Of a stretch of 64,000 bases of DNA, positions 541-63,949 are shown piece after piece. The stretch covers positions 34,410,001 to 34,474,000 of the forward strand of contig CM060733.1 of NCBI GenBank assembly GCA_030704615.1, given 5' to 3'. A program made the position numbers and the translations under genes. Source of the stretch: Takakia lepidozioides (Eukaryota > Plantae > Bryophyta). The notes beneath the pieces are model-generated. The model had not been told where the DNA came from. It ran no database searches and worked only from the letters and a program-made list of their open reading frames with translations. Within the stretch, counting starts at the first letter, position 1. Every line of letters starts with the position of its first letter.

Positions 541-698
541 ATCCTTCTTAGCTGGCATCACCGTTGCCGAGGCATACTCCCCGCCTGACAACTCCACCAA
601 TCCAGCTTCGAACAACTCCATAGTCCGTGACTGGATCAAAGACCTCTCCATATCACTATACCTGTAGGGCCTTCGAAAAATTGGCGTGTCACTTGCCA
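541..698 (-). mobile_element. Ty3/Gypsy RT N-terminal fragment, same family as the DNMT/PHD element at 42.5-48.3 kb
   Basis: Translates ASDTPIFRRPYRYSDMERSLIQSRTMELFEAGLVELSGGEYASATVMPAKKD. Co-linear by eye with 45338-45496 (ATDTPIFRRPYRYSDMER..LVELSGGEYASATVMPAKKD). Confidence 0.85.
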
Positions 699-876
699 AA
701 TCAATACGAACTATACGACTACATCACTACACGTGTCATTTTGAAAGCAAATACACGAATGTATTCATCCATTGGACGAGTTCATCCACAACATGATATG
801 ACATGTAAACTTATGACTGTCAAACTGCAGATTGTTTCATGACTCTATATATATGACTACATCACTACACGTGGCA
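699..876. repeat. CACTA-like subterminal repeat fragment (ATGACTAC-rich)
   Basis: Repeated atgacta / gactacatcactacacgtg motifs, similar to those inside the CACTA element at 2629-3466 and at about 52780-52930. Confidence 0.5.
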
Positions 877-4408: not shown

Positions 4409-4409
4409 T

Positions 4410-8128: not shown

Positions 8129-8225
8129 ACCAGAGCACACGACGCACAACAAAATTCTCACCATCATTCTTTCTGCGCTACTCAGTTCCTTGAAGATGTA
8201 TGACACTTGCACTGTGTATTGGGCC

Positions 8226-31900: not shown

Positions 31901-32692
31901 TCCAAGACTAAGAACATACAGCTCAGGACTGGAAAACCTTGCTAAGGTTATGAGGTTCTATCTCAGGGTCTATCAAAAGCTAGGATGTTTCAGTGCAAAG
32001 CGATAACATCTAGTTGCTTTAAAGAATGAGTCTGAGACCATAATAGCACTGGATTAAAATTTATGTGGGGCTCCTAAGCAGATCATTATGCAGCTGGTAA
32101 CCCATGTACTGCCTGTACCTTCGGCCACACAGCCATTGGCTAGGTCCTCCATACACACATCACTTGTTGTACTATCTGACTGCTCCACTTCAGAGGAGCC
32201 AGCTACTCGAGCAGAGTTTTCTGTATCAGCCTTGATCCCTATTTCATTAGCCTCCGTGAAACATTCATGCACAACCTCCAATCCTGCACACTTGCTCACA
32301 CCTGGCTCTTGCTCTGCAGCTTGGGCTGGGGCCAAAGAGGAATTTAGAGAAGGTCCCCTGGTCCCAATGGCTTTAAGGGAATTCACTATGCCAGTTGCAA
32401 GCACATCTGTTAACTGCGCTGCCACTGGGTCGTTTGATGATCCCTTGCCATTAACTGGATAGGGGGGCCCACCCTCAATTAGGCCTCTGTAGACACAATA
32501 TTCTCGCACCAGCTCGTCAATTGTGCCCACATTTACCCTCAATCGGCTTAACTCATTCTGCCATGCAAAAGAGACAGCTGCAGCCAGGTTAGACTAGTCG
32601 ACAGGTAGTCCCTAACACAGTGCTCTTTTTACACAATTACGTTCCTCAACGGACTTTCTCTCTCCCTCTCTCTCCAAACAACGTCTTATGAG

Positions 32693-32750
<58 letters not shown>

Positions 32751-35700
32751 GTGGCAGTTCTAAGTTTCTTTCTTTCTCCCTCTTTCACCCTTAGACAATC
32801 ACTTGAACAATAGTTCTTTTCTCTGACTCTGGTTTCCTGTTTTCTCTCATGTTTTTCTTTCCATTTTGTCCCATAAGCTCTATGAGCTTTCCGCGGACGA
32901 AATAAAGCACCATTTCATTTCATTTCCCTCTCTCAATCTTCTCCCCTGGAACATTTTTCCCTCCGTCTATGTCCCCTTTGAAACTTGATTATTTTCTATT
33001 TATTGAGATGGAGAAAAACATTTTCTGCTTTTGTAGTGCCTGGACATGCATAGCCCTCCAATCGTGTGGCCAAAATACCTATTCCCCTGGTGATTCTCCT
33101 TACCTAGACAGCTTGGTGAGGATCAGCACTCGCACAAAATATCTAGAGCACAGTTGAATCAACAGTTGATTAATTATTTAGTTACTGGTGCCTGCAATTC
33201 AGGTTTCAGACCTACAACCAGTGTTAAATATTGCCTCTTGTAGCCCCCTGATGGACCCACGGTATAACCACATCACAGATTACAAATTAGAAAATTTGAT
33301 TAGAGCTTAAAAATATATATTGCCACACCAACCTTAAACGCAGTCAGGAGGTCACCACTTGCATACCGCAGGCTATCCACTGCCCCCTGCCTAGGCAATT
33401 CCACTGCGTGCGCTAAACCTTGCACGTCGCTCTGGTCCATATACCATTCAACAAGAACATCACACAGTTTACACTGGCAGCTTTGTTATTCATGCAAATG
33501 TAACCCACATAATCCTTAGGAACTCCGGCTGAAGCTCGAACTAAACAGGTCCTTGACCAATAGCCCCCGATATAATGTCCAACAGAGTGAAACCACACAT
33601 CAACCACTACCCCAAAAAAATTCTTGAGCTGTCTACTTCAAAAGGATTGGTTGAGGAGGCTGATCGATATCAGGTTGCAAAACTGATAAGCTAATTGCTA
33701 CCAGAAACAACTCATTGAATGCTCTCTGTGTACCCTCTCTCTCCACTGTTCTTCAATGTTTTCATCAACCAATTTGGGCTGAAGGTGGTTCTGCCACCAT
33801 ACCAGCTCTTATGTTTGCAGATGACTTCGCGGGCCTATGGATAATCCATCCAATCTTCAAGAGTTGATTGATTGTGCGAAGAAGTATTTTGACTTTTGGT
33901 AGATAGAAGCCAACGTTATTAAATGCATGGTGGTGGCCTTATTTGGAGAGGGAATCTCAAATTGCTTCAGGGCAATGAAGAAATCTCTGTGCTCCCTTCC
34001 TACACACATCTTGTTGTTGATTTCTCCTCCAGTTGTAGCTGGGATACGCATATACAAAAAGTGGTGCAAGCAGCTAAACGTAAAGCTTTGGGTCCCACTA
34101 AATTTTCCCACTGCTGAAGTTTAAAGGACCATGCTTGCAACATCATTACGCCTACCTTGGAGTATGCATCTTTTAAATATGGGATGGAAACTCCAACCAT
34201 GCTAAGACTTTATTCAGCTTTCGGTGCTCAAGAAGAGCGGGTCAGCATGCTCTCAAACAGCTAACATAGCTGTTCAGGGCAAGCTTGCCCTTGAGCTCTC
34301 AACTGATGAGTTCAAGGTCAGATGGTGGGCTCAGTTGAATCACATGCATGATACCAGATACCCCAAGATGATGACTCTATTGCTTGGAAGCCCAAACTGG
34401 GCGGCAGGGTCCATGGTCACAAGGCTACGGCAAACAACGTCTTATGAGTACATTCTATTGCTTGGAAGGCAAGACCATCCTGTTCAACAGGTAAGTTCCT
34501 GGCACAGAAGGACATAGGAGATTTTCTAAGTACCTTGAATATTATGCAGGAAGAACTGACCCTGCTAGATGAAGCTGAGTTGGCGACTGAAGTATCTAAG
34601 GCTATATCGGAAGTATGAAGAATGTCTGAACCAAACGAAGTTGAACATGAAACTTCCCTGAACTTAATTTCCAGTCTGTGACATGGGTAAGGACCTTATG
34701 AAGGGCGTACCTATCCTCGGCACTTGACTGAAATTTAAACTCAGGACGGGGAGTCTACCTTTGAGCAATAAACAGATGGAAGAGAGGAAAGGGAGATTGT
34801 CAATGCCCAATGTGCTGGCAGCCGGAAGACAATAGCCATGTTCTGATACAATCTCTGGGGTATTCTCATCAGAGAGCCCCCATCTTCAGAACATTATGAA
34901 CACAGTCCCCGCACCTCTGTTCACCAACTTTCAAAATCTCGAGGCCGAGCCTAAACCCCTGGTCCTGTTGGGGTCTAATTGCTGGGCAGATCACACACAG
35001 CAGATTGATGCTCATGTGAAGTGCTTTCTAGAGGAAATCTAGAAAGCTCCAATTATCTATATAAAGGTAAGCCCCACTACTGGAGTCAGCCGCTCACAAA
35101 GGTAGTGTCTGTTCCCTCTTGTTCCGCCCAAACTGGTCGCAGGGTCTATATGAGTACATTCTCTGTGTATACATAGGCAAACAACGTTTAATGAGTACAT
35201 TCTCTCTGCGTACATTATAAAGTTCATGTGTTTCTTTGTTTCTCCTTTCTCATTGTTCTACTTTATGCCACCTCCTGTGGGGACATTGAAAAGTTTCTAC
35301 ATTTTGTCAAGTTTATTTCTTTCTTAGTTTGTCACATGGGCACCCCAGACATTAATAAGCTTTCATTTTACTTTCTCTCTCTGGCAAACTATGAGCTGAG
35401 TACAGAAAGCCCATTATAACGCAAAGGTGTCAGTTAAGAACCTCATTGAACTTCGGGGCTTCCATAAGGCACTCCTGGGGCATAGCAGGTGGATCACGCT
35501 CCTTGGACAGTACAGTCACAGCAACATCTGTTATTGGTGAAGCCACACCTTGCCGGAGGCAGTAGCCATTATGCATACTGGAAAATAGTGCTGACATGAT
35601 ATTAGCCAATTATATTAAAACCTCCTAAGAAGGTCTGAAGAGCCGAATTGCAGATCCAGGCACAAGTAGTTGTTAGGGGTCTTACCTCAAGTGGATAGCA

Positions 35701-38700
35701 GTAAATAGAAGTGACATAAGTAGGGGTACAAAGAGTTCCCTCCCAAGTGCAGTAGTCCTCACAAATGTTATTTGAAGGAAGTACCGAATGGAAGATCTTT
35801 GTTCATGGTAAACTATGTAGGAAGTCCGGCTAGTGTCCACAGAGGGGGATTAGTGACTAACTGTGCATACGGTGTGAGCATCTGTCCAACTGTGCTGGGT
35901 AGATACACAGGAAGGCATAAAAAACCTTGATAATAATCAAATTGCATGTGTTGTCACCATAAGTTGAGAAACCAATGTAATGGAGATAAAAACCTCAACC
36001 AACCTGATTAAGTATCGGAGGGTCAGGGAGAACAAGGGATCGTACGCCTGCGACTGAGCCTTGAGAGTGCTAGCAATGGTGGCCGCCAGCTCAGCCCTCC
36101 TGACTTCTGACCACTACTACACAGCGTCCCCAACCCAAGCCTTCAGTCACTGAAGTTACAAGACCTAACAATCATGAGTAACCAATGGAAGTGCAAAACC
36201 CCCAAGACCCATCCTTACTCAACATAAACCATTCACACACATATATATAACAACAACACCCTACTTTCTGCCATTCATTTCCTGCTGTATCACCCAACTA
36301 ATATGTGCTAGTACATATTGAAAGTCTCCTCACAAAGCACAGTGGCTCTCTAAACCCCCGCTGACAAAAGGCTCACCCCAGTGAAGACAGGCTAACAGTT
36401 GTCCTGCATGCTCATATTGCATATCATTGTAGGTGAGACAAAGCTGTAAGAAGAATGTCTTCAAATTAGTGGGAAGGAAAAGCACACCTCTTCGGCCACA
36501 GGGGAAGTACAGTCATCTTTGTCATACATCAGAGCTAAGAGAACTCGCTTGAACTCTTCATAAGCTTCCTGCACACACGCCCCCATGTAAGATACAGCCA
36601 TTGATTGAAACACCCGCTCAAACCCAACCTGATCACTGCAATATCACAAATACACATGCAAAACACATACTAGATGCAGATCATTTGGACAATTTGTGGT
36701 TGCACAGAGAGAAATAACTTATGTTGCTTCTGTTTAATGCTCGTAAGCAACCAATAGCCAACTGTCTAGCTGCATGGCACTGTGCATACACAAACATAAT
36801 GGTATCCATCAGGGGTTCCACATAGCAATGAGATCAACAGAACAGATGACCCCCTTCTGCAACTAAATGCCAACCACTATTGGTTTAGGTGGACTGACTA
36901 GTTCTGATGGACCTTCGCTCTTAGATTCTGTCTGGAAAGATTAAAAACTAACAAGAATTTGAAGAAAACATTGAAATTATTTGAGCTTCATGCACAGTTC
37001 ATATCATCCCATGGAGGATGGGCCACATCAAACTCCTTGAGACTGCCTCACACTTAGCTATTCCAGTACGACTTCCCAAAAAGACTCCTATCGCTCTTGT
37101 CCTCCTTTTGGTAACAGATAAGCTGAATTATCGGACAACCCACATGGAAATTGAGAAACTGTGCAGAGCAGTGTAAAAGAGGGACTCACAGGGTAGGCAT
37201 TGAGAGCGCATGGTCCAAGGTGTGAGCGAGAGCACTCAATTGCCTGCGCAACTGCATCTGCCCCTCCACTCCTCAGCAACTCTATGAACTTCTGCTTGGC
37301 AAACAAATAATACCACACAGCTAGACTGAGACATAACACATGTGCAAAGTTGTGCAGGCTCACCCAGATCACTATTGCACCTATGTGAAGCGTCCATGTA
37401 TCTATCAAACCAGATGGTTGAATGAACTCGGGCGTAGGGCCATCAATTGATTTCAGGTCACTTGTCAGATGACATACTTGAGCTAACTACCAATTATTGT
37501 CTTACAAAATCCTTGAACCCCTCATCGCCCATGAGTGAAGACTCTTGTTGGTGCCTTTTATTCAAATCATCGCCCTACAATCCCAACTGACCATTGGACC
37601 GTCATCAGAGAAGCCAACTCCTAATCCACTAGCAGAGTCGCCAACATATGAATTCTCCTCCTCCCCATCCCAATCACTATCATCATCTAAATCATGAGGG
37701 TGTTTTCACCCAACAACTCAGTGACAATATGCTGCACATTGCATAACTGAAGTACACATCAATCTTAACATCAGTCTCACCAGGTCCACCCTCCACAAAG
37801 GACAGCACAAAACGGACAGTGGATGCCCTAAAGGGCAAGTACTCCCAAACCCTTCCTACGCCTTCCCCCTTCTTTCCTCTCGTTCTTGAACAACAATGTT
37901 GCTCACAGTGCAACACCCATTGGTCCCATCTGCTGAAATGAGGGCTAAAGGAGGAGTGCCTGAATCTCATATATGAATCTCACTGCACAAATCCAACTCT
38001 GACTGCAAGCAATACAGTGATTTCAAGCTGAGTCCATAGGCCAAGGTTGGTTGAAACCCCACAACCACCTCTGAGTGGGTAAGCATCCTCCTGGGACACT
38101 GCCCTCAGACATATGTCCTAGCCAACATTTGTCAGGGAGTAAATCCTCTTGTAAACAGACTAATTTTCATACTACTTTAGTACAACTTAGCTGAAAACAC
38201 ACTTCAGCATGTGTGACTTAGATAGTACAGAAATACATACACCTCCCCCAGCCGACTTGCAAGATTCAGTTTGACTCTTACTGGTAGCACAGCCAATTAA
38301 CGAAAAGCATTTGTCACCTGTGGGTTTATAGCCAGAAGGCTAACCTTATGGGAACCATGTTACAGCTTAGGAAGACACATTGTCCCCAATGGACACAATA
38401 CAGTTTCTCTCTCTCGCAGCTAACACACAGCATGCTTGAGTGAACGGCTTTCTAGAGGATATCTGGAAAGACCCCAACTAATTGTTTATATCAAGGTAAG
38501 TCCCACTACCCGAGTGAGCCCCTCACAATGGTAGTCTGTCCCATCTTCTTTCACCCAAACTTCATGCAATGCTTGAGGAGTAATTTGGTTTCTCTGGTTC
38601 TCCTTGTGTCCCCTGGATCCTTTTGGCCCCCATGGACAGGAAAATCTTACTATCTTTCCCTCTTCTCTAAGTCATACCCCCACAGGAAGTACAGAGAAAT

Positions 38701-38962
38701 AGAGACAGACCTGTTTATGCAATCGGAAGAGGAGGTGTTGGTCTTCCAAAACAACCGGGGCATGTTCCTGCATAAGATGGAGAGCCTCTGTGATGCAGCC
38801 TGCCTCTATCAGCACTCGGATGAGCTCTATCGTATGGCGGGGGCTAGTGTTGCTGAGTGGTGGCGACAGCACATCCCCTGGCCTGTCCAATAAAAGCTCT
38901 GCCTCTGCATAGTCTAACACTAGTGCATCAAGCACACCCCAATTCACAGGTTGTGTGTCCAT
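28916..38962 (-). CDS. CTLH/CRA-domain protein (similar to Arabidopsis At5g66810), about 774 aa, 12 exons
   Basis: Exons (minus) 38711-38962, 37190-37291, 36488-36568, 36004-36113, 35442-35577, 33333-33431, 32119-32557, 31309-31658, 30970-31125, 30166-30363, 29663-29971, 28916-29008; GT-AG with consistent phases. Motifs MDTQPVNWGVLDALVLDYA, LLFRLHKQKFIELLR, EAYEEFKRVLLAL, QNPQLLFQLKQVEFL and EFLALSRGDAIQLL. Confidence 0.9.
32698..32746 (+). repeat. (CT)n microsatellite preceded by a LINE 3'-tail motif
   Basis: AAACAACGTCTTATGAGTACAAT followed by about 24 CT units. Confidence 0.85.
33640..35215 (+). mobile_element. Degenerate intronic non-LTR retrotransposon (RT C-terminal half and 3' tail; RTE-X/CR1/L2-like, clade uncertain)
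   Basis: Motifs CTLSPLFFNVFIN..PALMFADDFAG (RT), YTHLVVDFSSSCSWDTHIQKV and LRPTLEYAS-like. Ends in the family tail GGCAAACAACGT(C/T)TATGAGTACATTCTCTC. Confidence 0.8.
38420..38560 (+). mobile_element. Fragment of the same LINE family
   Basis: TTTCTAGAGGATATCTGGAAA..AAGGTAAGTCCCACTAC matches 35025-35130 and 39917-40030. Confidence 0.7.
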
Positions 38963-39609
38963 CAGGCTGTCCCTGCACCAGAAAAACCATAGACATAGAA
39001 AACTTGAGAGGGAGAGTAAAACGGAATAAAAAAAAGGACAAGATACAAGCAACCTGTGTCCCTTCCAGTATAACCTGAGACTTATTCCATGTCTTCCGTG
39101 AGCAAAGTTAGACAAGATCCCCCCAAAATCAAAAAACATCATTTTTCTCCATTCGAAATCCTAAGTGATGTACCGTCTAATGCTCCCTGCCCTGAAGGCC
39201 TACAGCAGTCCTTATCCTGCAGCCCAACCCCTGTTGTGCCAATGCACACCCTCCCTGACAAGCTCCACCTGCAAGACTTCTGTAATCTCTTTCTCCCAAC
39301 AAGAATGCGGACCTGCTGCTAAAGGTGAACCCCTAAGTGCTGGCACCTAAAATTTTACCTTGCACTATCAGAGGCAAGCTATGGCATGGATACAAGAAAA
39401 ATATCGCCAACCTCATAAATTCCGTCAGTCAGGAAATGGCTCTTGTAAACCCAACAGGAAATGGCTCTTCAAATCCAGCTGCACACTGCAAAAGCCAGCA
39501 GGATGATATTAGCCAAAATTTGGAGATAAAAGGGTGCGAAGAGGTATACCTGTGAGTGCTGACTTCCTCAGTTTCAAAGACCATCTGAAATCGCATCCCT
39601 CCATCCATG

Positions 39610-40092
39610 CAGGGCACAGGGTCTAGGGCTGGGGGCTCTATGACAGCCAGGCTACGACAGGCAAACTTCATTGAGTACCTCTCTCTCTCCACAATACTTC
39701 CCTGAACTTGTTTCCAGTCTGTGACATGGGTTTTCTGATTCATTGTCCAGGGTTCTCACCAGAGAGACTGCTCTCTTTCAATCTATCAAGGGAATTGTGC
39801 CTGTACCTCTGTTTACCAACTTTGAAAGTCTCGAGGCTGAGCCAAAAGCCCAGGCCCTTTCGGGGCCTAGTTATTGGGCAAACCACACACAGCAGGTTGA
39901 TGCTTGTGTAAAGGGATTTCTAGAGGATATCTGGAAAACCCGGATCAATTGTTTATTCCAAGGTAAGTCTTACTACCGGCATCAGCCCCTGACAAAGGTA
40001 GGTCTGTCCCTTGGTGTTCTGCTCAAACTGGGGGCGGGGTCAATGGCCACAAGGCTACAGCAAACAACGTCTTATGAGTACATTCTCTCCAC
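39610..40092 (+). mobile_element. 5'-truncated copies of the same LINE family
   Basis: Homologous to 34660-35160. Tails CAGGCTACGACAGGCAAAC..GAGTACCTCTCTC (about 39650-39690) and GGCTACAGCAAACAACGTCTTATGAGTACATTCTCTC (40053-40089). Confidence 0.75.
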
Positions 40093-41448
40093 AATACAAT
40101 TAAGTTGTTGGAACAAATAATTGCTGCCAGTGGTAAAAACCCTAATGGTCTTGCTCTATTCACCATCAGAGGCCTGGATACATATGTTTTGCAGCCTTAC
40201 CTAACAAATGGTGACATGCATCTGGCATGTAGAATTATACCAGTCCCAGCAGTTGGCATAAGCTGCTAACAAAAGCAAAGGCTGCAAAGAGAAATCAATG
40301 CTTACGTTCGAACACTGGATTCCTCAGGTTGAAATACCATCCGAAACTGCATCCCCACGGTGACATCCAAGTCGTAGAGTATCTTGTGATACTTGGCCAC
40401 CGGTATCAAGAACCCCGACGATCCTGGTTCTTACCTTTTTGCTATAAGTCAATTGTGTCAAATCCAACCAGTTAACGGCTCTCGCACTTGGCAGGCGACT
40501 CGTCCATTTGCGGAAGAACTGCTGCCAAATTTGGTCTCCGGGTCCAGATATAGCCTGAAGCCGATGCTGTGCGCTTCCGGCTTTCCATCCGCTCTTTGGA
40601 TACGAGTGAGCCGGTCAGACGCAAGTTTCTGACGTCTCCTCGCGATCCTTTGCTGCTAAAAATTCCGAAATTCCACAATTCTAGAAGAGGTGTGGAAGAA
40701 GAAAGCATTCAATTAGAAAGAGGAAAGCTGACACAGCGGGCACGACAGGGTGCCGCAACAACGGTCCCCCAATTGTGCAAAGCCCTCCACCACACCACTG
40801 TTTCTTCCAACATAAGCACAGACTCTTGAATTGTCCCTTCCGTTATGATTCAAGCAAGGTACCGACCACTCTGTCCTTCGCTAGTGTGAAACAGCCCCTA
40901 GGTCTGGCAGGTCAAGTGCAAGACAGCACACTTGTTACTGCTGCCCGCCGCTGCTCCACACCTGCTGCCTCGAGCCCTTGCTTCACTATGGCCTGCCTGT
41001 TACCCTGCGGCAGCCATGCAATCCGCCATGCATGCACCCCTGCTTCCTCATCTTTATCCTCCGAGATACCAACTAATTAATTAGGCACTCATTAGCCCTC
41101 ATTAGCACTGCTTTAGTGCTAACTTAATTCCCTCCTCTTGCAAATAGGTGGCATATGAGGTGGCTGCCAGTCGAAAGCGGTCACATCGGCTTTGCTTGTA
41201 CTAGGTCATCCTATAATTGGACAAAAGGAATATTGCATTGAAGTGATTAATACATTATAGGCTAGTAATGATGCAGATTGTTGAACAAGACATTTTACCA
41301 TAGACATGTTACAATTTGCACCTAGGCATTTTGTACTTATAGATCGATCTATATATATATATATATATATATATATCAGTTTTATCATCTTCTTTTTTTA
41401 ATCTTCTATTTATTTTTTATTTTATTTTTAAAAAAACACCATTGTAAC

Positions 41449-41892: not shown

Positions 41893-42574
41893 CCATAGCA
41901 TGAAACCTACTTGGATTCTTCGGTATTTTAGTGAAACCGAGGTAAGAGGGGATGGGGAGGATATGACAGGCCCCCCACCCCTTGGAGGAGCCCAAGCTGC
42001 TGGAATCCGGGCGAAAGCACAGTCAGATTGCAGGTGTCCATTAAGTTCTTGTCTGAACTTCCAAAAAGAAAATTGAATCATCACAAAAATCATTTTTATC
42101 AATTATTTCCTATTTTTTTAAGGCTCCATCATTACTAAAATATTACTTTGTTTATTCATATATTGATAAAGTTAGATAGTAGAACAAGTTTGAGTGTTTT
42201 ACTAGCGCAAAAGAAAATAAACTATGAATGATTTGACATGAAAATTTCTTGTAAATGCTCCTAGTCTTTTATAGTATGTGTTGTGCGCATACATATCGCT
42301 ACACAACTACATCGCTATCCAAACCACACCACATATATATGCACAATAAAGTAGTCTGCCACAAGAAACACAAGGCCCAGCTACTAGGAGACCTTGAACA
42401 CACGAGGTCCTGGCTCAAGTTCACAAATTGCAAGATGGCGACTAACGATGGGGCTACTCTTGTACCCGGCCTCTTGGTCTATAGAGTTTGAGTGCAATAG
42501 GGGCAGTGATAGAGGACTTAGTACGGCTGTGGCTATTACATCTTGTTAGCCTTCCATGGTTGTATCCACTCCCA

Positions 42575-43830
42575 CTATCCAATGCAATGTGGACATAACC
42601 AATCCCCATCCGGAACCATCTCAAGAGGTGGAGTCAAGCATCCCATATGCCAACCTCTAGAGCATCGATCACACACCAGCATGGTGGCTGCCCCTTTAGC
42701 AGACCCACACAACATGCACCTCAAACCTGCAGATACCACTGCCAGGTTTGGGTCAATCTTGCCATCGACATTCGGAAGGTGACATGGCGCACAATTACGC
42801 ACATGGTCCTTCCAAGTTATGCCATCCCGACCCTCCAAGACCAAGACGCCTGAAGGCAAGACCTCTCGAACCCTCAAAATAACACGTCCTGCAGTCACAT
42901 CCAGGGTCGTAGGAGCAGTCTGCTGCAGATAGACATAGTCACCAGGGTTGAATCTCCGAACCCCAGGACGATAGCCCCCACCACGTATGGTAGCATACCT
43001 CAACGTATCACGGTGTTGTGCAATGGCAAGGTTCTCGAAAGCCATGGGCATGACTCTCTTGAACAACTCTGCACGCTGCTCACATGCACGTGCCCACACG
43101 TCCGGATCGTCAAGGTTAAGAACTGTAGCAGCTTCTCTGCGAATGGATGTAGACAAATCCGACTCTCGGCCAAAGAGAATGAAGTATGGTGAGAAGGAGG
43201 CAAGTGATGCTTGCTTGCTGAACCTATAGCCCATGGCTAACCAGGGTAACTGAAGGTCCCAATCTCCTAGGTGTCCCTTCTGCAAGCCATACTTGCGCAA
43301 ACCCCTCTTTACTGTCTGAACAACTCTCTCTGCCAAGCCGGCCTCAGGATGATCCCGAGAAGTGGTGCGGTGGTCTATCAAGGCCTTGTCACACAAAGCC
43401 TGAAACTCCCCCAAGAACTCTCTCCCTTGGTCCGTGAGTACCTCAGCTGGAGTACCGAATCGGCTAAGCACACAATCCAAGAATGCATACGCAGCTCCCT
43501 CACTAGCCTTATCAGGCAATGGAACCAATTCAATCCACTTGGAGAAGTGCTCCACCATCACCAACACGTACTTGTTGTGGCGCATGGTCAGTGGCAATGG
43601 CCCTGCGAAGTCAAGACTCCACCTGTAGCCCGATCCCATGATCGGAAGAGGGTGCAATTGTGGAGTAGGGGTGTTGAATGAAGCACGCACCTTGTCACAC
43701 ATCATGCACCTAGCCACAAATTGTTGCACCTCTGTGTACATACCACGCCACCAATACTGCCCCTGCAGTAGACTATGAGTGCGTCGCACCCAAAATGCCC
43801 CAACTCCTCATGGGCATGCCGCACTAACCG
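42575..43830 (-). CDS. Integrase (HHCC, D,D35E) with C-terminal PHD finger
   Basis: HEELGHF..CMMC zinc domain and catalytic WSLDFAG / VLTDQG / AERVVQ. C-terminal CMLC..CDRC..WH..C..WLCPHC (C4HC3) at 42578-42718. The 404-aa ORF is uninterrupted. Confidence 0.93.
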
Positions 43831-43836
43831 TGCCCG

Positions 43837-44619
43837 CTATGTTGGGTGAGGCACAATCCTCACTCGACCATCCTCCCACACTCGGAGCAGGTGTGTCCCC
43901 TCCCACTTGAACCTCTTGGCTCGTTGTAGGATCCGATCCCTCTCCTTGGCAGTCACAGTGGCTGTAGTGTCTCCAGTGCGGAGGTAGTCCAACACAATTG
44001 AATCCTCATGTATATCTTTGGCGCCACCTTGCTCATTGCTGGCCTCAGGGTCCTCAGACACTTGATCTACAGTCATCCATGTTGCAGGTCCAACTTGGCC
44101 TTCCGCTGCCAAGATACACAGAAATGCAGATGCATGCCATCCGGGCACCATCTCCTCGTCCGTCTCACCATGCCACCGAGCTCCAGTGTCATCCTGCTGG
44201 CTCGTGCATGGATTGCGACTCAACCCATCTGCATTGCGATTGACCAAACCCGGTCGATGCACCACCTGAAAGTCATACTCTTGAAGGATGAGTGCCCACC
44301 GTGCAAGCTTCTCCGTAAGCTTGTCTGACTCCATCAACCACTTGAGTGGTTGGTGATCCGTGACAAAGGTGAAGAGATTGCCGTATAGATAGCACCTGAA
44401 GTGTGCCACGGCCCACACTGTAGCTAAGCATTCTCCCTCATATGAGCTATACTTAGACTCTACAGCATTGTTCGAGCGGCTAGCATAAGCCACTACGAAC
44501 TCTCTTCCCTCATCATCCACCTGTGTGAGCACCGCTCCAAGCCCCAGCATGCTCCAATCTGTATGCAGCTGAAAAGGACGCCCCCTGATAGGTCGTCTCA
44601 AGATGGGCGGCGAGGTCAA
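43837..44619 (-). CDS. Ty3/Gypsy RNase H and linker
   Basis: PFQLHTDWSMLGLGAVLTQ..VVAYASRS..YEGECLATVWAV..TDHQPLKWL..ADGLSR. Confidence 0.92.
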   Translation of the reverse strand: MTSPPILRRPIRGRPFQLHTDWSMLGLGAVLTQVDDEGREFVVAYASRSNNAVESKYSSYEGECLATVWAVAHFRCYLYGNLFTFVTDHQPLKWLMESDKLTEKLARWALILQEYDFQVVHRPGLVNRNADGLSRNPCTSQQDDTGARWHGETDEEMVPGWHASAFLCILAAEGQVGPATWMTVDQVSEDPEASNEQGGAKDIHEDSIVLDYLRTGDTTATVTAKERDRILQRAKRFKWEGTHLLRVWEDGRVRIVPHPT

Positions 44620-44667
44620 CCTCGCCTTGAGCTCTTGAAAAGCTCATTCTTGCTCATCTTCCCACTG

Positions 44668-45600
44668 TCACTCCTGGTCCACCTTGGTCAGCTTGGTTAG
44701 AGCCTTTGCAATGGCACTAAATCCCTTAACAAACCGTCTGTAATAGTTTGCTAACCCCATGAAAGCTCGAACTCGGCTCACATCCGTGGGGCGTGGAACC
44801 TGTGCAATGGACTCTACCTTAGTCTGCTGTACCCCCAATCCTCCAGGATATATCATGTGACCCAGATACTCAATCTGGTTGTGGAAAAACTTGCACTTGC
44901 CCGGATGTAACTTCAATCCGTGCGTCCTCAAGCGCTCAAATACCCCCTGAAGGTGTCTCTCATGCTCCTCCACCGTAGCACTAAAGATGATGATGTCATC
45001 TATGTAGCACCGAGCAAACTCCACCCCTGCTAGAATCCTGTCCATGACTCTTGAAACTCAGCGGGAGCGTTTTTAAGCCCAAATGGTAAGAACCGCCACT
45101 GGTATAGGCAATCCTTCCCGTCATTGATCCCCAGAATGCCGTCTTTTGCTTATCCGCCTCCTTGATCGGCAACTGGTGATATCCGGATCGTAAATCCAAC
45201 GTGCTAAAGACCTTGGAATGCCCAATGGCATCAAAGATCTCCTCTGGTGTCGGCATGGCATACCTATCGGACTTGGTCTGACGATTTACAGGCCGGTAAT
45301 CACCGCACATACGTCTCTCCGTCCAATTACCATAGACATCCTTCTTGGCTGGCATCACTGTGGCTGAAGCATACTCTCCACCAGAGAGCTCCACCAAACC
45401 TGCCTCCCAGAGATCTTGAGTCCTCATCTGAATCAAAGACCCTCTCCATGTCACTGTATCTATAGGGTCTCCGAAAGATTGGCGTGTCAGTGGCCAACTC
45501 AATACGGATCTCTTGACCATTCAGTGCTCCCAAGTCCTTCAAACTGAAGGCAAAACAATTCCTGTAAGCCCTCAGGAACCGCTGTATACGTTGTCTCTCT
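44668..45600 (-). pseudogene. Ty3/Gypsy reverse transcriptase (frameshifted)
   Basis: RRMCGDYRPVN, FSTLDLRSGYHQ, LPFGLKNAPAEFQ, CYIDDIIIFS, KCKF..YLGH and RAFMGLANYYRRF, split across frames. Confidence 0.93.
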
Positions 45601-46019
45601 CCTCCGGTGACAATGGGTCCAATGTCAGGCTCCTAATTGTCCTCCGTAACTGCAACCTTAAGTCCAGTGGGCTTAGAGGTAAAGGACGCGTCCCGTGGTT
45701 GCTATGTTGCAACCTCTTGAGCAGTACTCCCTTCATGCTCAGTCAATGACAAGGCCTCATCCTGCCCCATCATCTCATCATTGAGAACCTCCTCATCCCG
45801 AGAAGAATCCCCAACCTCATCCATCACAGCTGCCTTGGCTGCCAACTCCCTCTGAACCTCGAGCACCTCCCACGTGTGCCATGGATGTCTACACCCCGTG
45901 GTCCTCACCGGCTCGCCCCCACTTGCTGCCTGTACCGTCTCGGTAGGCAGAGAGACCGTCAAGGGAAGTGCACTCCGCACTCTACGTTGCTCAGCCATAG
46001 CCAAGCTGATAATCCAGGT

Positions 46020-46955
46020 CAAGCAATTGAGATCCATTGCTTGCCCCAACACCTGACGACGTGATGCCTCAGAAAGAGAAGGCACCGCCGTGGTCCCAGT
46101 GGAAAACCCCATAGCCCGCTCTCGCTCGTCGGCATTAGGCTCCACTAACTGCTGCAACTGAGCATCCCACAGGAGGCCGGGTCCACCATCCCGAAAAGCA
46201 TGGGATCCTGGGAAGCTGAGCAGTGTAGGTAATGTTGCTCGTGGTTGACCCACCCTGTTGACCACTGCCAAAGGCGAACGGTCATCGTGTCTCACACGTT
46301 GAGTCTGCCTCCCTGTGTCCAAAATGCCATCCACGGTGAGGTGTGCTGACCGCTGCACCCCATCAAATGCACGCTTGAGTAGTGCGGGTGACATCAAGTT
46401 AGTCCACCAAAGCCGTGGACGATGAGCCCGTGACCCCACTGCAGCTGCATCCAGCAACACTGCTGACCCAAGCCACGACCGGACTTGATGCACACTGGCC
46501 ATCACCCTGGCCCGAGAATCACCCATCAGTGGCACATTCTCCAAGATGTATGCTGGCGATACAGCTTGGTGAAGCTGCAAGTGGCGCAAAATCTGCATCA
46601 TCTCCCAAAACAGACCCGTCCTCGAGTCTCGCAATCCATTGTCATGCCCGGCTGATGAATGCCCTTGGCAGGGCCAACCTGCCACTACCAGATCAATGGA
46701 GCCAACCTACTCCAAATCCGGCGCCCCCTGCAACGAAATGTCTGCTGGCAAGGCTTGTTGGTATCCACGAACTGCAGACACTGGCAACAAAGCAGTGTAC
46801 TGTTGTACCAACTGAGCAACATGGCGCAGTGAGACGCGTCGTGCAGTCTCATCCCTCTCCACATACAGGTAACGCCTTACCCGCACACCTGCTTGTAGCA
46901 CAGCAGCCAATCCGGTGCTGATCCCGCCAAACAAGTCCAGAAGACAAATGCCTTC
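46020..46955 (-). CDS. DNMT3-like cytosine-5 DNA methyltransferase domain embedded in pol (one in-frame stop)
   Basis: Motif I LLDLFGGISTG, II YVERD, III ADI, IV DLVVAGWPCQG, VI YILENV, VII/VIII LLDAAAVGSRAHRPRLWWTNL, IX ERERAMGFSTGTT, X RRQVLGQAMD. ORFs 46707-47414 and 45702-46685 share a frame and are separated only by TAG at 46707-46709. Confidence 0.92.
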
Positions 46956-47311
46956 ATCCGGATACTGCCACACAATAGGTGTGGTATCCAATGGTGACAG
47001 CTGAGGTGGTCCTGGTGCAATACCCGCACTCTCCTCCTCTCCTGACGGTACAAAAGCCTCTACCCAGGCTTGTTGCACCCGTCGATCAGCAACCTGCTGC
47101 AAATCCTTGCTCGTACCCCACAATGGAGTGTGAGCAACCATGGCAGGCAACTCCGCCACACCATGCATGTCATCATGCTCTGCTGGAGGTGGCACATCCT
47201 CTGCATGGGCATTGCCTTCCAGCAACTCTCCAAGCAAACTAACTGTAGCTGTAAAGGCGGCTAGTGTTGGCATCTTGCCCTGTTGGGCAGCTGCACTACC
47301 CCCAATGAATG

Positions 47312-47680
47312 TCACAAGGAGTTGTGCACGACGACCATCCCCTGACTGCCATCCAGGCCTGTAGAATGCTGACTCCTCCCAAAAGTCCAGGGTGAAGCCC
47401 ATGGGGTATAACACTGCCCAACAACGAGGACATCGTAAGAGACCGCGTCTGTCATAATGGCCTTGGCTCGCATCACTGAGCCATCTGTAGGGTGATCCGG
47501 CTGCAGTCTAATGGCCAACTGATGTTGTGTCATGCCCCGAGCCTGCTCTGATCCTCCCAGAGATGTCTGTATCTGGAAAGGACAAGGCTCCATATCCGCC
47601 TCCATGAGGCCCAAACCTGCAATAGCAACTCTGCCCAACATCAGTGGCTGAGCTCCCGAGTCCAACAAGACCCGTAGTGG
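47312..47680 (-). CDS. Retroviral-type aspartic protease (frameshifted at C-terminus)
   Basis: VLLDSGAQPLMLG catalytic motif, with YDVLV-G-like C-terminal motif. Confidence 0.85.
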   Translation of the reverse strand, partial: PLRVLLDSGAQPLMLGRVAIAGLGLMEADMEPCPFQIQTSLGGSEQARGMTQHQLAIRLQPDHPTDGSVMRAKAIMTDAVSYDVLVVGQCYTPWASPWTFGRSQHSTGLDGSQGMVVVHNSL

Positions 47681-49131
47681 CCGTTACTTCTTGCCTGCCG
47701 GTCCACTCAAAGTAAAAATGCCTCCCTGGTTGTCTAACAAGACAACTCCAGGGGTCACCATGGCGCGCTCAAAGGCTGGCCTAGCTGGCAGCTCCGTCAA
47801 CCTGGCAGCTGCAGCTTGCCAGGGCACAGCCGTGGCAGTCTTGACCCTCAAATCCGAGGATCCCTCTGCCACTACACCTTCCAGTAACTCCGCAGAAGAT
47901 GAAGTGACCTCCCCAATCTCACAGAGTGTTGCTGCTAGTCTGAACACTGCAGCTGGTCTTACCCCCGGCGTCGCAATCATGGTTGCCGAGAACAGTGGGG
48001 CTTGACACACAGAGGTGGGGAACCCAAAATCTTGCATTCTCTTGCAACCCAGTATACTTCACCCGCCACAAGGCACTCTCCTCAGCAGCCTGAATGTCAG
48101 CCACTGTCTCGGTAGGCCCCTCCACATCAGATCCTGTGCATGGTGTCTCGGGGATGTGGTCACTTGTGACTCCAGTATCTCCACCTTCATCCGCCAGACA
48201 TGCCAGCTCAACCTCACTGAATGAGTATCCTTCCATGGTAGTTGTAAAGTAGAATCCCAATAGCATACAAGCATATAAGAAAACTACAGCTGCATGGACA
48301 CCAGCCACCATGCAACCGGCAAGAAAACTACAAAACAAAGCATCCTCATGTCTAAGATGATTTCAGGAGACAATTTTGGGAGGCAGCTCATGTGCTCAGA
48401 GTTCATTAATGCATCCTATATCCTACATGAGTAAAGTAAACAACAATGAAATGCAAGCATAAGGGAAAGAGAGGCGTACCCTAGAGCATCTCATCAATAT
48501 CAGCAACTTCCTCAATATTGACAGCCCCCAAAATCGCCATTCAAATCGCCTCAATCAAAGAGCCGCAACTCTCCATTGCTGCACCCTAAATCCCTAAAGC
48601 TCCACATATTCATACCTAGGGTGCAAGCGATGGCGGAAGACAGGGTACTGGTATCGACAAAGATGCGTTCTTTGTGATACCAGGCTGGTCTGGTAGGAGC
48701 CCAGGTATTTGTGTTTTATTATATTGCCCCCAATATGTTCTGCCCGGGGTACTGCCATTTTCTTATACCCGCATGGTCTGGTACCCTGCTGCAATACCCT
48801 TACCTGTGCTGATACCCCGCCTCGCCCCAATATACCGGTCCAACACCGGTTCTGACTTCTGACAAATGAGATTATGTAGCCCACATGTGTTATGTATATT
48901 CAGCTAACACAAGCGTTATAGTTATAAAGCTTACTTTACAAATAAAGGGGAAACTATTACCTCATGACTTCATATGATACAATATCTTTTATCGTGTAAT
49001 CTCTCCATCACACAATCATCCATTACACACTATTGTGCACAGTGCTGATGTTCAAACGCTTCGGGACCAAATCACCATCTTACAAACGAAATGCATCTCG
49101 GAGGAGACTCTGCAGCTTCCGGCGACTGCAG

Positions 49132-49339
49132 GCACTAACTATCTCACATAGCGCCAACGTTGCGGTCAAGCAAGTAACGTTTTTGAACAGCCAGCAAATT
49201 CACCTCCAATTTTCCGTTTGCACCACCGCTCTGGCAAACAGTGTCACTATACAAGCGCCTGCCGATAGCCCAAACACCGACGGAATCCATGTATCAGGCT
49301 CTACAGCTGTGACAATACAAAGCTGTTCTATCACTACTG
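49132..49339 (+). pseudogene. Isolated polygalacturonase (GH28) exon
   Basis: AG|ALTISHSANVAVKQVTFLNSQQIHLQF..IQAPADSPNTDGIHVSGSTAVTIQSCSITT-G|GT, containing the GH28 SPNTDG motif. No GDDC, GHG or RIK exons found nearby. Confidence 0.85.
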
Positions 49340-52300
49340 GTATTAAAAAAAAAATCGTTTCCTGTCGTTTCTGAATCTCCTGAAGTCATCATTTTCCATG
49401 TTGACCGACCAAGACATCAAGTTGCCATATTGTAGAGTGGGTGTTACTCTGTACACTCTATTATACCATTGGACCCTCTATTTAATCGTTGATCACAATA
49501 GCGGCTTAGATTAGGTGATCTGTCTTTGGGCCAGTAGCGCTGAAGCACATGGCTGTGACTTGGTGGTTTTTCATAAAAGGAGTCCATGACACGGACAAGG
49601 GCGAAACTTTTGGGTGTTCATTCTGGTGTACATGCGAGTAGAGGTGTAAGTAATATGTACTGGTGGGACAATCTATAGGTCCTCTTCTATGTGTGCCAAG
49701 TTGGTGAGAGAGAGGTGTACATAATATGGTGCACTGGCTGTGTAACATATAATCTACTTACAGGTCCCTTCTACGCGTGACTCCCTCCTCATCATAAAGC
49801 CTGCCTTACCAAGTTATCATCCCCCCAGTTCATGCATATAGGAAGAGGACGAAGCATCTCTACCCTAAACACATTTGTGGTGGAGATCATGGAGGGTTCT
49901 AAACAAGGTCTATGAGGGATTGTCGATATGATCACTTTGCAATGACATATCTCATATATTCAATTTCCATCTGTATATCTGTGCTGATCATATCCATTTT
50001 AATACGATAAAATGAATCTAACATGGATGCTAAAGCTTTTGTCTGAAATGCAAAATGACAGTGGGTCATATCTTAAAATGATGCACAGGGTTTGACATCT
50101 TTGCCGATTGATGGGTGCATTTGCTTGTGGGCCTAACATTCAATGTCCCATGGTTTTGTCTGCCTAAGAGGGGCCCTACTCAAATTTCCTTCCAAAAGAA
50201 ATAAAACAGAACAAAAGTCTCTGGCCAGTGAAGGGCACCCAAGAGAACATGAAATTAGTAGACCCAAAAAGAAATAAATCACGTCACCGAGTATCAAACA
50301 TATCGCCCTGTATGCACCTCCTACAATTATTGACCCCACAGTCTGACCCCATTGCTACCGTGCAGCGATGGTAGCAGGCCATTCCAGCGCTCGACGTCGT
50401 CTGGTAATGGAATACAAGTCTGACAACACGGTTTGTTCAGCTCCACCCAATCACACGCCAAAACATGGCAGCTGAAAAGAGAAATCCTGGTTACGAATGT
50501 TCGACTAGCATTGAAATGAGGTTGCTGAGACAAGTATAGACACAAAATGGAAGTGAATGTGAGATGCATGATTATTACAGGTTGAAACCAATAGGACATG
50601 GGAGCTTGAGAGGAGTGGGTACCAAGCAGCATAACCGTAGAGATGCAGGTATTTTTGCCCACATGTAGCGAGTCTCTTGCTGCAAGCGGAAAAATAGAAA
50701 AAGTGAGGGACGGCCTCCCTCCTATGGATCCCGCTCTCTCTCCCAACCAATGAAGGACGACTAGACAAGCGTTGACTTCCGCATGCCAGCTGATATGCAA
50801 TGCTTCAGCTTGTTGTGCAACATACCAAATCTTGTGATTTCGCTAAATTTCTACCATATTCTGATGTCATGAAGTAGTGTGAAGTGTTTGATGTTGACGG
50901 CACATGAGGACGCCCTTAGAATGCATAGCAATGGTGAAGATAGAAAACAGCGTTGTAAAACAACAAGATAGAGGAATTGACTGTCTTTAGAGTATGAGAA
51001 TTGGAGGGAAATGATACATATATATCCCAAACTCCCGCCATCCTCAAAAGCAGGCAACGGAATGAGGCAACATTGCTAGGCTTGGGAGTGGATGGCGCAT
51101 CAATGAACTACGACTTCCATGAACAGGAATCATAAATCTGCAGAAGGTGAGAAAATGAGAAAGTACTAAGTTCGTTGCCAATTGCTCCTACGAAAGTGAG
51201 CCTCATAGGCTACAATGGGTTCTTGTCAATCTTATATGCCATACATTTCATTGGGATCTCGAGAAAAATAAAAGTCAGCTTGCAGCTTTTGTAGTTATAC
51301 ATAATCATAAACGAAATGGAAGACGAGAGATTTTATTACCATAATAAAGTCTTCTAGGCAATCGACAACAACAAAGAAGATCGGAGAGGTAAAGTGAGTC
51401 AAGACAAACGAAAATAGAAATATAGGGAGACTCGAGGATCATGAGAGAGAGTACGGATCATGCAGCCTACCAAAATGTCGGTCACGCAGTTCCGATTGGT
51501 GGGGGGGGGGGGAGTTGGAGGGGTTTTCCATGGGTCGTCTTGGTACAACAAGTAGATTTGGACTATGATAAATCAGTATTTTTTTATTATCCGTTGTGAG
51601 CATGCATTGGGACAAAAATATAGACTTTTTGAAGAGGAGAAGGAGGATGGTCTTTATAAAATATGGTGGCCCTTACATGGAACGTTTAAATGTGTCTAAT
51701 TTAAGCTCTACCAAGCTATGTTTTGCTCCAGCTGTCGTCATTCGACTCTGTCTCCTCTCGTGCTTTGGCCAACAGTTTGACCCCTTTTAATTGGAATGAA
51801 AGCCCATGTTTCTTGTGACGGAAGAAAGTCACGAATCTGTAATTCCCAATTTTGCCAAGGTAGGGGAATTTTGCAATACCTACCAAGATTGCTATTTCTT
51901 CACGGTCCGAAGGGACGTTCCACAAGGCGCTGTGGAAGTTTGTACTGTAGGGCAGGCGCTTCCATGTGTTCCCCACCTTTAGGGCATGATGGTCATTGGA
52001 CGTGAAAAACTGTCGTATATCACGTTTGTCATGTCTTGGTGGGTTATTTCCTGGATTTGTTGGTCCGTTACAGTGTCTATTGTATCGGCTATTTTCAACG
52101 TTGACATGGTTGTTTGTATGTATGGTGCAGAGAAAGAGAGAGATAGAGAGAGAGGCAGGGGCAGATGAAAGTATATATCGGTGGGTTTTTTAGGAGAATT
52201 AAACCCTAAGAGTGCGACTTTAAAATTAATCACGCTAATCTATAGAACTGTGGCTTTCTCTCTCAGAGCGAGGTTGATGCTACACCGCTTTGCTGGGAAG

Positions 52301-53256: not shown

Positions 53257-53449
53257 AAAAGGGGCTTTTAGGGTTTACAAAAAGGTTTAAAAACTTAAAA
53301 AAATGTCCATCACAGTAGCGTGAACAGACTTAGAGCGAGCGGGAGGGAGAGAGAGAGAGGGTTGGGACTTAGAGCGAGCGAGCGGGAGAGAGGGCAAACA
53401 TGCATGGGAGGCCCGCAGTTGGATCAACCTTCGCATCTGGAGCAAGCAA

Positions 53450-54380
53450 CTCAGCCAGCAGAAACACATCTGATAATGTGGGTTGGGCTGCTTGTAACAG
53501 GGTTGCATCTCGCACCCTTCTCTTGAGCTCCTTGTCCAGAATTCCATACCAAAACTGGATTGCCTGAGCTTCAGTAACCCCTTGGGTCACACTTATCAAG
53601 CGCATCATACGAGTGTACGCCTCTCGCATGCGCTCACTGGGTTTGCGCTGGAAGTCTTGCAAACTTTGCAGCTTCTCTGTCCGTACACATTGGTAGTTCC
53701 TCCGCAACTCCTGGAAGAACTCCACCACCGGGTTGAATCTAGGCACATGTGTTGTAGTCGTGGCAGGAGGAGTAGTAGCACCTTTTGAACTAGTACCACC
53801 TACAGAAGTACCAGCACTACTTGCTCCACTACTAGTGCTGGCAGTGGGAGCTATTGGTACTGATGCAGCTACTGGTCGCGTCGTGCCTCGAGTAATGGAG
53901 ACGTAGTCAGGTGACCAATACATCCTCCACTCCTCAATCTCTTCATGTCCTCGCCTGAACTCGTGGTAATCGTCCATAGGCGGGCCTTCCAAATGCTGGA
54001 ACAGTCCCTTCCACACCATGAATGGGGTGAATAGCTGTGGATTGCGCATCTGCTGCAAATCACACCAGCTGTCGAACTCCTGGATAAAGTCATCCAACTC
54101 GATTGTGCCCACAGCTCCAGAGTACCTACGAGGCCCCTTGGTAGCTCCATACATCTCCTCCATGTCGTCCCACAACAATGGCGAATGAAAATGTGCACAC
54201 CTGTTGATGAAGCCTCCGAGTCTGTGTCTGACTCTACAGTAATTGAGGGTGGCGGTGAAGGTGGTCTGAACCGAATACCTCGTCTTGTGAACCCACTCTC
54301 ACTGTTACTGCCTGTAGCCGTACTCCCCTCAAAACCCTTGGGTAACTCCGTAATGACACTCACAATGTGCACCTCCTCCA
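53450..54380 (-). pseudogene. Ty3/Gypsy gag N-terminal part (truncated)
   Basis: YSGAVGTIELDDFIQEFDSWCD..LQDFQRKPSERMREAYTRM (retrotransposon gag). Homologous to 62612-63320, and the homology ends abruptly at VFLLAE (53450). Confidence 0.85.
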
Positions 54381-61400: not shown

Positions 61401-61417
61401 CATGGTGACATAGGAAG

Positions 61418-62611: not shown

Positions 62612-63949
62612 TTGTGGGATACGATGGAGGAAATGTATGGAGCTACCAAGGGGCCACATCGGTATTCTGGAGCTGTGGGCACCATCGAGCTTGATGATTT
62701 CATACAGGAGTTTGATAGTTGGTGTGATTTGCAGCAGATGTGCAATCCACAACTGTTTACGCCTTTTATGGCGTGAAAGGGGCTGTTTCAGTACCTTGAT
62801 GGAACGTCCATGGATGACTACCATGACTTTAGGTGGGGACATGAGGTGGAGATTGAGGAATGGCGGGTATATTGGTCACCTGACTATGTCTCCATCACTA
62901 GAGGCACAAGGGCAGTGGTGACATCGACAGCTACACCGGCAGTTTCTGCTAGTAGCAGTGGGATGTCAAGTGGAACAGGAGCTGGGAAGTCCACCCAAGC
63001 TCCTGCTGCAGCACAAACACTCGTGCCTACTTTTAACCCAGTTGTGGAGTTCTTCGAGGAGTTAAGGAGAAACTACCAGGGGATAAGGACGGAGAAATTG
63101 CGGAGTTTGCAAGAGTTCCAACGAAAGTCTACCGAGAGTTTAAGGGAGGCTTACACGCGCATGAGACGATTGATAAATGTAACCCAAGGGGTTACGGAAG
63201 CTCAAGCAGTCCAATTCTGGTATGGGATATTGGACAAGGAGCTAAGGAGAAGGGTGCGGGATGCAACTCTCCTACAAGTGGCCCAACCCACCTTAGCAAA
63301 CGTGTTTTTGCTGGCAGAGCGGATAGAGCTCAATATGGTGGAGAAGCGAGTGGTCATGGTGGGGTTTGGTAAGGAGACACAACGAAGTGGGGCTCCTAGC
63401 CAACAACAACCACTACCCCAACGTGCTCAAGGCAACAAAGAGGCTCAGGCGAAGCCCAGGGAAGGACAGAAAGGATCTCAATTGCAGAGGTTACTTCCTT
63501 CATTCTCAAGCCAACAACAGTCGGGAGTGACATGTTAGGATTGTGAAGGACCCCATATTAAGAGAGATTGCCCGGAGAGAGGCAAAAGGTCGGCACAGGC
63601 ACAGCCTACACAACCACAATGTAGGCATTGTGGAAAATATGGGCATGAAGAGACCCATTGTTATGACTTGCATCCTGAGCTGTGGCCAGGCCAGTTCCAA
63701 TGGAACAATGGTGGCCGAGGACGAGGCAATGTATTCCAAAGAGGTAGAGGAGGCAGACGTCGTGGTGGAGGTCGTAACCAAAACCAAGGAGCACAGGGTC
63801 AGGGTCAAGGTCATGACCAAGGCATGGTGGATATGCTTGCCCAGCTAGAGCAACGTCTTGCTACCATGGTCACTACTCATGTTGCGCCAGCTCCAAGGCC
63901 TAAGGTTCAAGCCCCACCTGCACAACCTCCTATGCCTAGGGAAGACTAG
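62612..63949 (+). pseudogene. Ty3/Gypsy gag (second copy of the 53450-54380 gag) with two zinc knuckles
   Basis: Single frame with in-frame stops at 62774-62776 and 63536-63538. Knuckles C*DCEGPHIKRDC and CRHCGKYGHEETHC, followed by an RGG-rich segment. The element continues past the window end. Confidence 0.88.

Follow-up and report, generated by a model that had tools for sequence, protein, structure and literature searches.

The closest described systems to the locus reported here are KnitGypsy-Dnmt3 of the alga Klebsormidium nitens and SymbioDIRS-Dnmt3 of Symbiodinium, both of them retroelements carrying a cytosine methyltransferase domain related to DNMT3. According to de Mendoza et al., copies of KnitGypsy-Dnmt3 are methylated in the CG, CHG and CHH contexts; the Klebsormidium domain gave no methylation signal in yeast, a result that the authors call inconclusive, whereas de novo methylation at CG in yeast was shown for the DNMT3 domains of SymbioDIRS (PMC5890265). 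The hosts are algae that are hard to manipulate, and for that reason the question of why transposons carry cytosine methyltransferases has stood since 2018. Later papers, citing de Mendoza et al., write ‘streptophytes’ (PMC12344493; bioRxiv 2026.05.21.726589), and the preprint on EpiLTRs and DAM-LTRs sets these elements apart from ‘streptophytes (Gypsy-DNMT3)’ (bioRxiv 10.64898/2026.05.21.726589). For land plants, the printed view of Morozov et al. is that transposon methylases are lacking (PMC6338049).

The window, i.e., the whole stretch of 64,000 nucleotides of Takakia lepidozioides that was analysed (contig CM060733.1, positions 34,410,001 to 34,474,000), contains at 42279-48050 on its minus strand a decayed Ty3/Gypsy copy with the layout PR-DNMT-stop-RT-RH-IN-PHD. 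Its features, and those of related fragments elsewhere in the window, are as follows.

42279..48050, minus strand: decayed Ty3/Gypsy copy, 5'-truncated (contig depth step in run X1, and Pfam domains)
42279..42360, minus strand: 3' terminus, ending in CA and like the end of repeat B in relatives (blastn 77-80% to the B ends of L070, L037, L008 and L080)
42361..42546, no strand assigned: inverted segment (contigs of runs X7 and X9 switch strand; inverted matches to L019, L068 and L080)
42575..43807, minus strand: integrase open frame with zinc-binding part, DDE core and C-terminal extension (PF00665, E 1e-14; PF17921, E 5.4e-9)
42584..42718, minus strand: PHD finger at the integrase C-terminus (PF00628, E 1.9e-10)
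43837..44643, minus strand: RNase H and connector (PF17917, E 3.8e-35)
44668..45520, minus strand: reverse transcriptase in frameshifted pieces, with YIDD at 45006-44995 (PF00078, E 5.6e-15 and 2e-5)
45696..45704, minus strand: conserved TAG followed by CAA CCA (CARYYA context), a likely programmed readthrough site, as we infer from the alignment with relatives
45981..46952, minus strand: DNMT3-like C5-cytosine methyltransferase domain with linear motif order (Pfam, PDB matches, motifs)
46707..46709, minus strand: premature stop, private to the window copy (contig letters at 46709)
47400..47683, minus strand: aspartic protease with LLDSGA at 47668-47651, its frame shifted relative to the downstream linker (motif; Asp_protease Pfam matches in relatives)
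53444..54163, minus strand: N-terminal part of a gag belonging to the family (59-62% by tblastn to Marchantia P0002, P0003 and P0007)
62624..63877, plus strand: gag from a further family copy, close to the end of the window (tblastn 48-51% to P0002, P0003 and P0007)
541..711, minus strand: piece of an RT belonging to the family (nucleotide identity of 77% to 45323-45506)

The limits of the copy are set by contig data: in run X1 the summed contig depth is 0.45-1.3 million inside 42279-48050 versus 500-8,400 in the flanking bins, 55 contigs with dissimilar flanks exit the element sequence exactly at 42279, and the 5' truncation falls at about 48050. The copy is damaged, with more stops and frameshifts in PR, RT and IN besides the stop at 46707-46709, and its protease gives no Pfam match, although relatives do give Asp_protease matches. 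All that is left of the terminal repeats is the B-like end at 42279-42360, adjoining the 186-base inversion; comparing the window with itself revealed no second LTR to pair with the 3' end of the element, and the purine-rich run found ahead of repeat B in relatives gave no match in a motif search of all 64 kb. The gag fragment at 53444-54163 is probably a separate piece, because a polygalacturonase (GH28) exon at 49000-49374 on the plus strand sits between it and the pol remnant. Other observations in the window are a tandem array of 33-base units at 61411-61711, ahead of the second gag; a partly duplicated host gene at 29500-40500 on the minus strand, with similar stretches at 34400-35045 and 39797-40086 and weak CTLH and ARF_AD Pfam matches; and an S-acyltransferase host exon, the best named matches of which are from Sphagnum (47%, half of the query) and Physcomitrium (39%, 88%), followed by vascular plants, in a comparison that covered proteins of 244-779 residues and may thus miss a liverwort orthologue. 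One contig of 5,009 bases in run X9, which carries the label of another organism, matches the element at 42361-47260 with about 94% identity, across DNMT, RT, IN and PHD.

The methyltransferase domain proper runs from 46952 to 45981 (324 codons). The span of 45702-47414 given by the earlier note encloses it but takes in linkers too; the motifs that this note placed in linear order between PR and RT were all located, in one minus-strand frame, at these positions.

46940-46917, minus strand: LDLFGGIS
46679-46665, minus strand: GWPCQ
46547-46530, minus strand: ILENVP
46427-46398, minus strand: AHRPRLWWTN
46127-46104, minus strand: ERERAMGF
46061-46026, minus strand: RRQVLGQAMDLN

The single in-frame stop that had been noticed at 46707-46709 is indeed the only one inside the domain and is private to the window copy, since 459,275 of 466,564 of run X1 depth has another letter at 46709, and likewise in runs X5 and X9. 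PF00145, proposed as a check, matches the domain with an E-value of 4.9e-12 and a score of 46 bits, where the cut-off is 22. The DNMT3-type, non-permuted class named in the same note is borne out by sequence, profile and fold, in all of which DNMT3A ranks first: searched against the PDB as a single sequence, the domain finds DNMT3A (E 6e-10), then DNMT3B/C, DRM, bacterial enzymes (HhaI among them) and DNMT2, and a profile gives DNMT3A at 1e-21, DRM at 3e-9 and HhaI at 5e-6. For locus L073, whose domain is naturally open, a structure model (pTM 0.78, mean pLDDT 71.8, residues 209-265 unreliable) has a predicted fold for which the top structural match is also DNMT3A (E 6.8e-16). This ranking, one of similarity and not a phylogeny, sets the domain nearest to DNMT3, with DRM, DNMT1, DNMT2 and the bacterial enzymes further off; the ESM Atlas returned generic PF00145 clusters only, the first of them Streptophyta. 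Across 109 aligned domains, gaps excluded, 100 of 105 have the catalytic Cys, 103 of 108 the Glu of ENV, and 97 of 106 and 98 of 105 the first and second Arg of motif VIII. The PHD finger on the integrase C-terminus, absent from the earlier description, was found by Pfam.

The DNMT is a fixed trait of a bryophyte Ty3/Gypsy family, not a one-off capture, and this family is abundant, at high copy number, in mosses and liverworts. Run X1 places 65,473 contigs on window 42000-49300, with depths of 0.75-1.21 million in DNMT bins versus 0.92-1.13 million in RT bins, summed depth not being equal to copy number. A protein search returned 61 longer relatives and 209 of similar length (120 listed); Marchantia polymorpha, M. 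paleacea, Calypogeia fissa, Riccia sorocarpa, three Sphagnum species, Klebsormidium nitens (45%) and Monoraphidium are named among the matches listed, most of which come without an organism name, and no vascular plant is among the relatives listed. In metagenome loci (the best 80 of 98 confirmed), the order gag-PR-DNMT-RT-RH-IN-PHD is fixed wherever the locus is long enough; as these 80 loci were picked via the methyltransferase, they are blind to copies lacking it. A large group of loci clusters with Sphagnum proteins (quick tree, SH-aLRT 98). A scan of IMG/VR for the family gave 32 pattern matches, none of which was confirmed, and one protein labelled as coming from a bacterial MAG (P0124, on a 2.4-kb contig) nests among the gag-PR-DNMT proteins and is probably eukaryotic contamination. 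In the DNMT tree, the Marchantia and Sphagnum domains group together (SH-aLRT 92), with the liverwort Calypogeia apart and short branches, a grouping that may reflect either horizontal transfer or old paralogous lineages. No description of such elements in a land plant was known to the earlier note, and none for bryophytes was found by our literature search, which covered sources outside subscription journals and repeat databases and met one review denying them in land plants; term searches of the accessible text of PMC6317226, PMC6453930, PMC10952607 and bioRxiv 2021.02.12.428880 gave none either. Marchantia and Sphagnum are not named in the text of PMC5890265 or in its three searchable supplements, and a search of the supplement of PMC12344493 gave 0 matches; a land-plant sequence may be present in one of the tree figures of the later papers that write ‘streptophytes’.

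A related enzyme also occurs in a second layout, RT-RH-DNMT-IN-PHD, between RNase H and integrase (P0045, P0049, P0053, P0060 and representatives among P0290-P0432). This layout is complete in 31 of 143 newly fetched representatives and forms a single branch in the RT tree (95/97), which includes Monoraphidium. A DNMT profile retrieved 488 clusters at E below 1e-30; DNMT-bearing elements are therefore far more diverse than described.

Between lineages, the DNMT domain is under purifying selection: in five lineage pairs its pN is 0.20-0.25 at a pS of 0.65-0.75, below the pN of gag (0.31-0.32, two pairs), PR (0.31-0.36) and linkers (0.37-0.46) and above that of RT (0.13-0.17), and because pS is near saturation the pN/pS ratios are rough, only the contrast between regions being firm. 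For the 21 elements in which both RT and DNMT are present, the trees of the two domains agree in 10 of 18 splits, with a Mantel r of 0.86 that none of 2000 permutations reached, figures that are inflated by kinship and long branches. Among 60 distinct Sphagnum-clade copies, singleton transversions in DNMT stand at 125 to 32, a neutral ratio of 0.98, as dead copies should show; those common to at least three copies amount to 9 nonsynonymous and 2 synonymous in DNMT and 2 and 3 in RT, too small a number for a judgement, though no constraint is visible in the latest burst. The same copies show strand-symmetric C-to-T decay (CG 0.21, CHG 0.23, CHH 0.07), which fits an explanation by host silencing enzymes acting after insertion. 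Within CHH, decay in Sphagnum-clade loci is high at CTC, CTA, CAA and CTT (0.10-0.17) and low at CAC, CAT and CCH (0.02-0.05), a pattern that fits the reported CWH preference of PpDNMT3b only in part.

Many relatives end 70-160 residues past the DNMT domain. In 57 of 59 aligned Sphagnum-clade loci, a set that includes re-assemblies of one insertion, a stop stands at the matching site (TAG in 40, TAA in 17, the remaining 2 having TAC), CAACCC lies behind it in 54 of the 59, and the stop fraction is 0.39 or less at every other codon of gag, DNMT, RT and IN. TAG CAA CCA is found in the window (TAG at 45702-45704), L010 and L043, and TAG CAA CTA in L060 (L060 and L061 fit CARYYA), with a third-position difference of 55-63% between lineages carrying the conserved TAG context, which is met at 6 of the 1648 TAGs of the window. 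Decay as the origin of the TAG at 45702-45704 was rejected on the strength of this conservation in the Sphagnum clade and in four divergent lineages. The RT frame downstream of the stop is the same as that of the DNMT, and TMV, like further plant viruses, uses UAG-CARYYA as its signal for readthrough (PMC2754532, PMC4132726); by this likeness the conserved TAG is likely a readthrough stop giving the RT-RH-IN-PHD product. In the Sphagnum clade the last base of CAACCC departs from CARYYA, and re-initiation is possible there because an ATG comes next. The stop is lineage-specific, since L065 has a different context (TAG TAG CCA) and P0036, P0042, P0044, P0047, P0057 and P0295 run from DNMT into RT without a stop. 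As for the placement of the enzyme inside pol by the earlier note, its position between PR and RT stands, but because in the bryophyte clade the conserved stop separates it from RT the enzyme there belongs to the Gag-PR-DNMT frame, not to Pol proper.

Repeats defined on L073 were matched in 37 of 80 loci, with the full A-coding-B-A-B arrangement in 5 of the 80 (4 insertions) and a 3' B-A-B in 3 more. Read by eye, the termini of full-length Sphagnum-clade relatives are TG...CA, and 10 insertions with both ends show a 4-bp duplication that is exact in 7 and has one mismatch in 3. At the internal B-A junction, 9 of 9 loci have CA, two bases, then TG or TA, forming a perfect palindrome in 3; going by what is known of integrases, staggered cutting behind each CA there would yield processed ends. 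Repeat B is preceded by a purine run, and inspection by eye of the sequence that follows repeat A revealed no canonical tRNA primer site. Membership of the DIRS (tyrosine recombinase) class was rejected in view of the rve integrase and the 4-bp duplications. Two copies have internal inversions involving repeat A (L072, 4786-12072; L074, 956-5597).

Taken together, the window holds a dead copy of a high-copy family, and there is an even chance that in this family a leaky stop loads particles with the enzyme in Gag-like amounts for methylation of the element's own cDNA. Gag-PR-DNMT would be made in bulk, occasional readthrough adding RT-RH-IN-PHD, and the DNMT would be packed at a Gag-like dose and would methylate the new cDNA before or at integration; the cDNA as the substrate is a proposal for which we put the odds near parity. 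The PHD finger of the integrase would guide the choice of chromatin and the integrase would cut the internal B-A junction (CA-NN-TG), releasing ends that are already processed. The likely benefit would be that the new copy resembles host methylated DNA or is quietly self-limited. Against this reading stand the negative yeast result for the Klebsormidium domain and a CpG content that shows no additional CG loss; the C-to-T decay, too, can be put down to host enzymes. That Gag-level DNMT3 load, cDNA pre-methylation, PHD chromatin reading and integration via a palindromic junction instead of LTR ends all hold together, with the sister branch having moved the enzyme between RNase H and integrase, is a tentative picture to which we give about one chance in four.

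An active enzyme could also be imagined at work in the nucleus after integration, where surplus Gag-side DNMT would methylate integrated copies or competitors and damp transposition or host surveillance. The Gag-side position would supply far more enzyme than one cDNA per particle requires, the copies bear heavy symmetric methylation scars, and a slowing of transposition is raised as an option in the Discussion of de Mendoza et al. (PMC5890265). However, the DNMT has no reader of its own, the PHD finger lying beyond the stop and fused to the integrase, and the scars fit the contexts of host MET1, CMT and DNMT3 (PMC6453930); a nuclear role is rather unlikely, though the likeliest of the rivals. 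Less probable again is a function other than DNA methylation, such as attachment to the genomic RNA or its methylation, or protection of the cDNA ends and of the B-A junction in the particle. It would agree with the lack of DNA activity of the Klebsormidium domain in yeast (PMC5890265), with Gag-like amounts, which suit a structural function, and with the absence of CG depletion, the CpG observed/expected being 0.52 for the element, 0.59 for the domain and 0.44 for the window; against it, more than 90% of domains retain the catalytic Cys, Glu and Arg and the nearest structures are the DNA enzymes DNMT3A/B, not DNMT2.

Morozov et al. suggested that such elements are kept since their methyltransferase aids the host against DNA viruses (PMC6338049), and methylated giant-virus insertions have been reported in Klebsormidium and Physcomitrium (PMC12344493). 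This explanation is very improbable here: because copies decay neutrally after insertion, as the DNMT singletons show, constraint acts via element replication and not at fixed host loci, and the hypothesis rested on an absence from land plants that the liverwort and Sphagnum matches contradict. A host DNMT3 gene or retrocopy that landed once in the window copy as a passenger would be compatible with the heavily broken state of that copy but is scarcely credible. The earlier note had named, as outcomes that would speak for a one-off insertion or against an element function, RT-family copies without the domain and an absence of purifying selection; instead, the same position and spacing recur in dozens of loci from several genera, selection on the DNMT is visible between lineages, the RT and DNMT trees are similar and DNMT and RT depths are even, and a single host insertion is refuted by the fixed position, the depth and the selection. 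Cytosine methylation of the element's own cDNA by a particle-borne enzyme is the reading that we consider most likely.

Several consequences follow for work on these elements. The bryophyte matches contradict the printed statement that land plants lost them (PMC6338049). Because numerous gene models of the family are annotated in Marchantia polymorpha, a genetic model for which methylation mutants exist, tests of activity, readthrough and cDNA methylation come within reach. The conserved stop indicates that some lineages set the enzyme dose at the Gag level, which narrows the mechanism. Gene models of the family can also inflate DNMT counts in bryophyte annotations.

Among known systems, KnitGypsy-Dnmt3 is the nearest, as described in PMC5890265: it too is a Gypsy element whose PR and RT flank a DNMT3-related domain that is free of introns and not permuted, its DNMT is likewise under purifying selection, and it shares the A-coding-B-A-B repeats (Fig. 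4c legend), here seen in relatives, the window copy having the B-like end only. The Klebsormidium protein KFL_009030040, which has the order PR-DNMT-RT, aligns over 70% of the query at 45% identity. The two elements may share one origin, although in the DNMT and RT trees, which are without host DNMT3 or DNMT-free RT outgroups, long branches meet near Klebsormidium. Unlike KnitGypsy-Dnmt3, the bryophyte family is present in liverworts and Sphagnum at high copy number, its conserved stop splits the DNMT from RT, whereas the KnitGypsy DNMT lies in the ORF of RT (PMC5890265) and the Klebsormidium-clade proteins P0042, P0044 and P0047 run from one into the other, and its integrase bears a PHD finger, a term with 0 matches in the text of that paper. 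SymbioDIRS-Dnmt3 resembles the family in joining a DNMT3-type domain to a retroelement with A-coding-B-A-B repeats (PMC5890265), but it is a tyrosine recombinase element, in contrast to the DDE integrase, TG...CA ends and 4-bp duplications found here.

The PHD finger has its parallel in Chlamydomonas Gypsy-7a_cRei and REM1, where it is likewise an accessory of a green-lineage Gypsy polyprotein (PMC9940879, PMC6673714); compared by description only, Gypsy-7a_cRei differs in that a methyltransferase is missing from the domains listed for it in these papers. EpiLTRs and DAM-LTRs also are LTR elements joining a DNA methyltransferase with a chromatin reader, but their DNMT is described as sister to DNMT4 and they add DAM and a chromodomain (bioRxiv 10.64898/2026.05.21.726589). 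By description, the host enzyme PpDNMT3b has the same linear motif order and DNMT3 class, and host plant DNMT3 genes, as reported, are not embedded in gag-pol as the bryophyte domain is (PMC6453930). The element is thus of a kind known from Klebsormidium, and its land-plant lineage differs from the described one in the conserved Gag-side stop and the PHD finger of the integrase.
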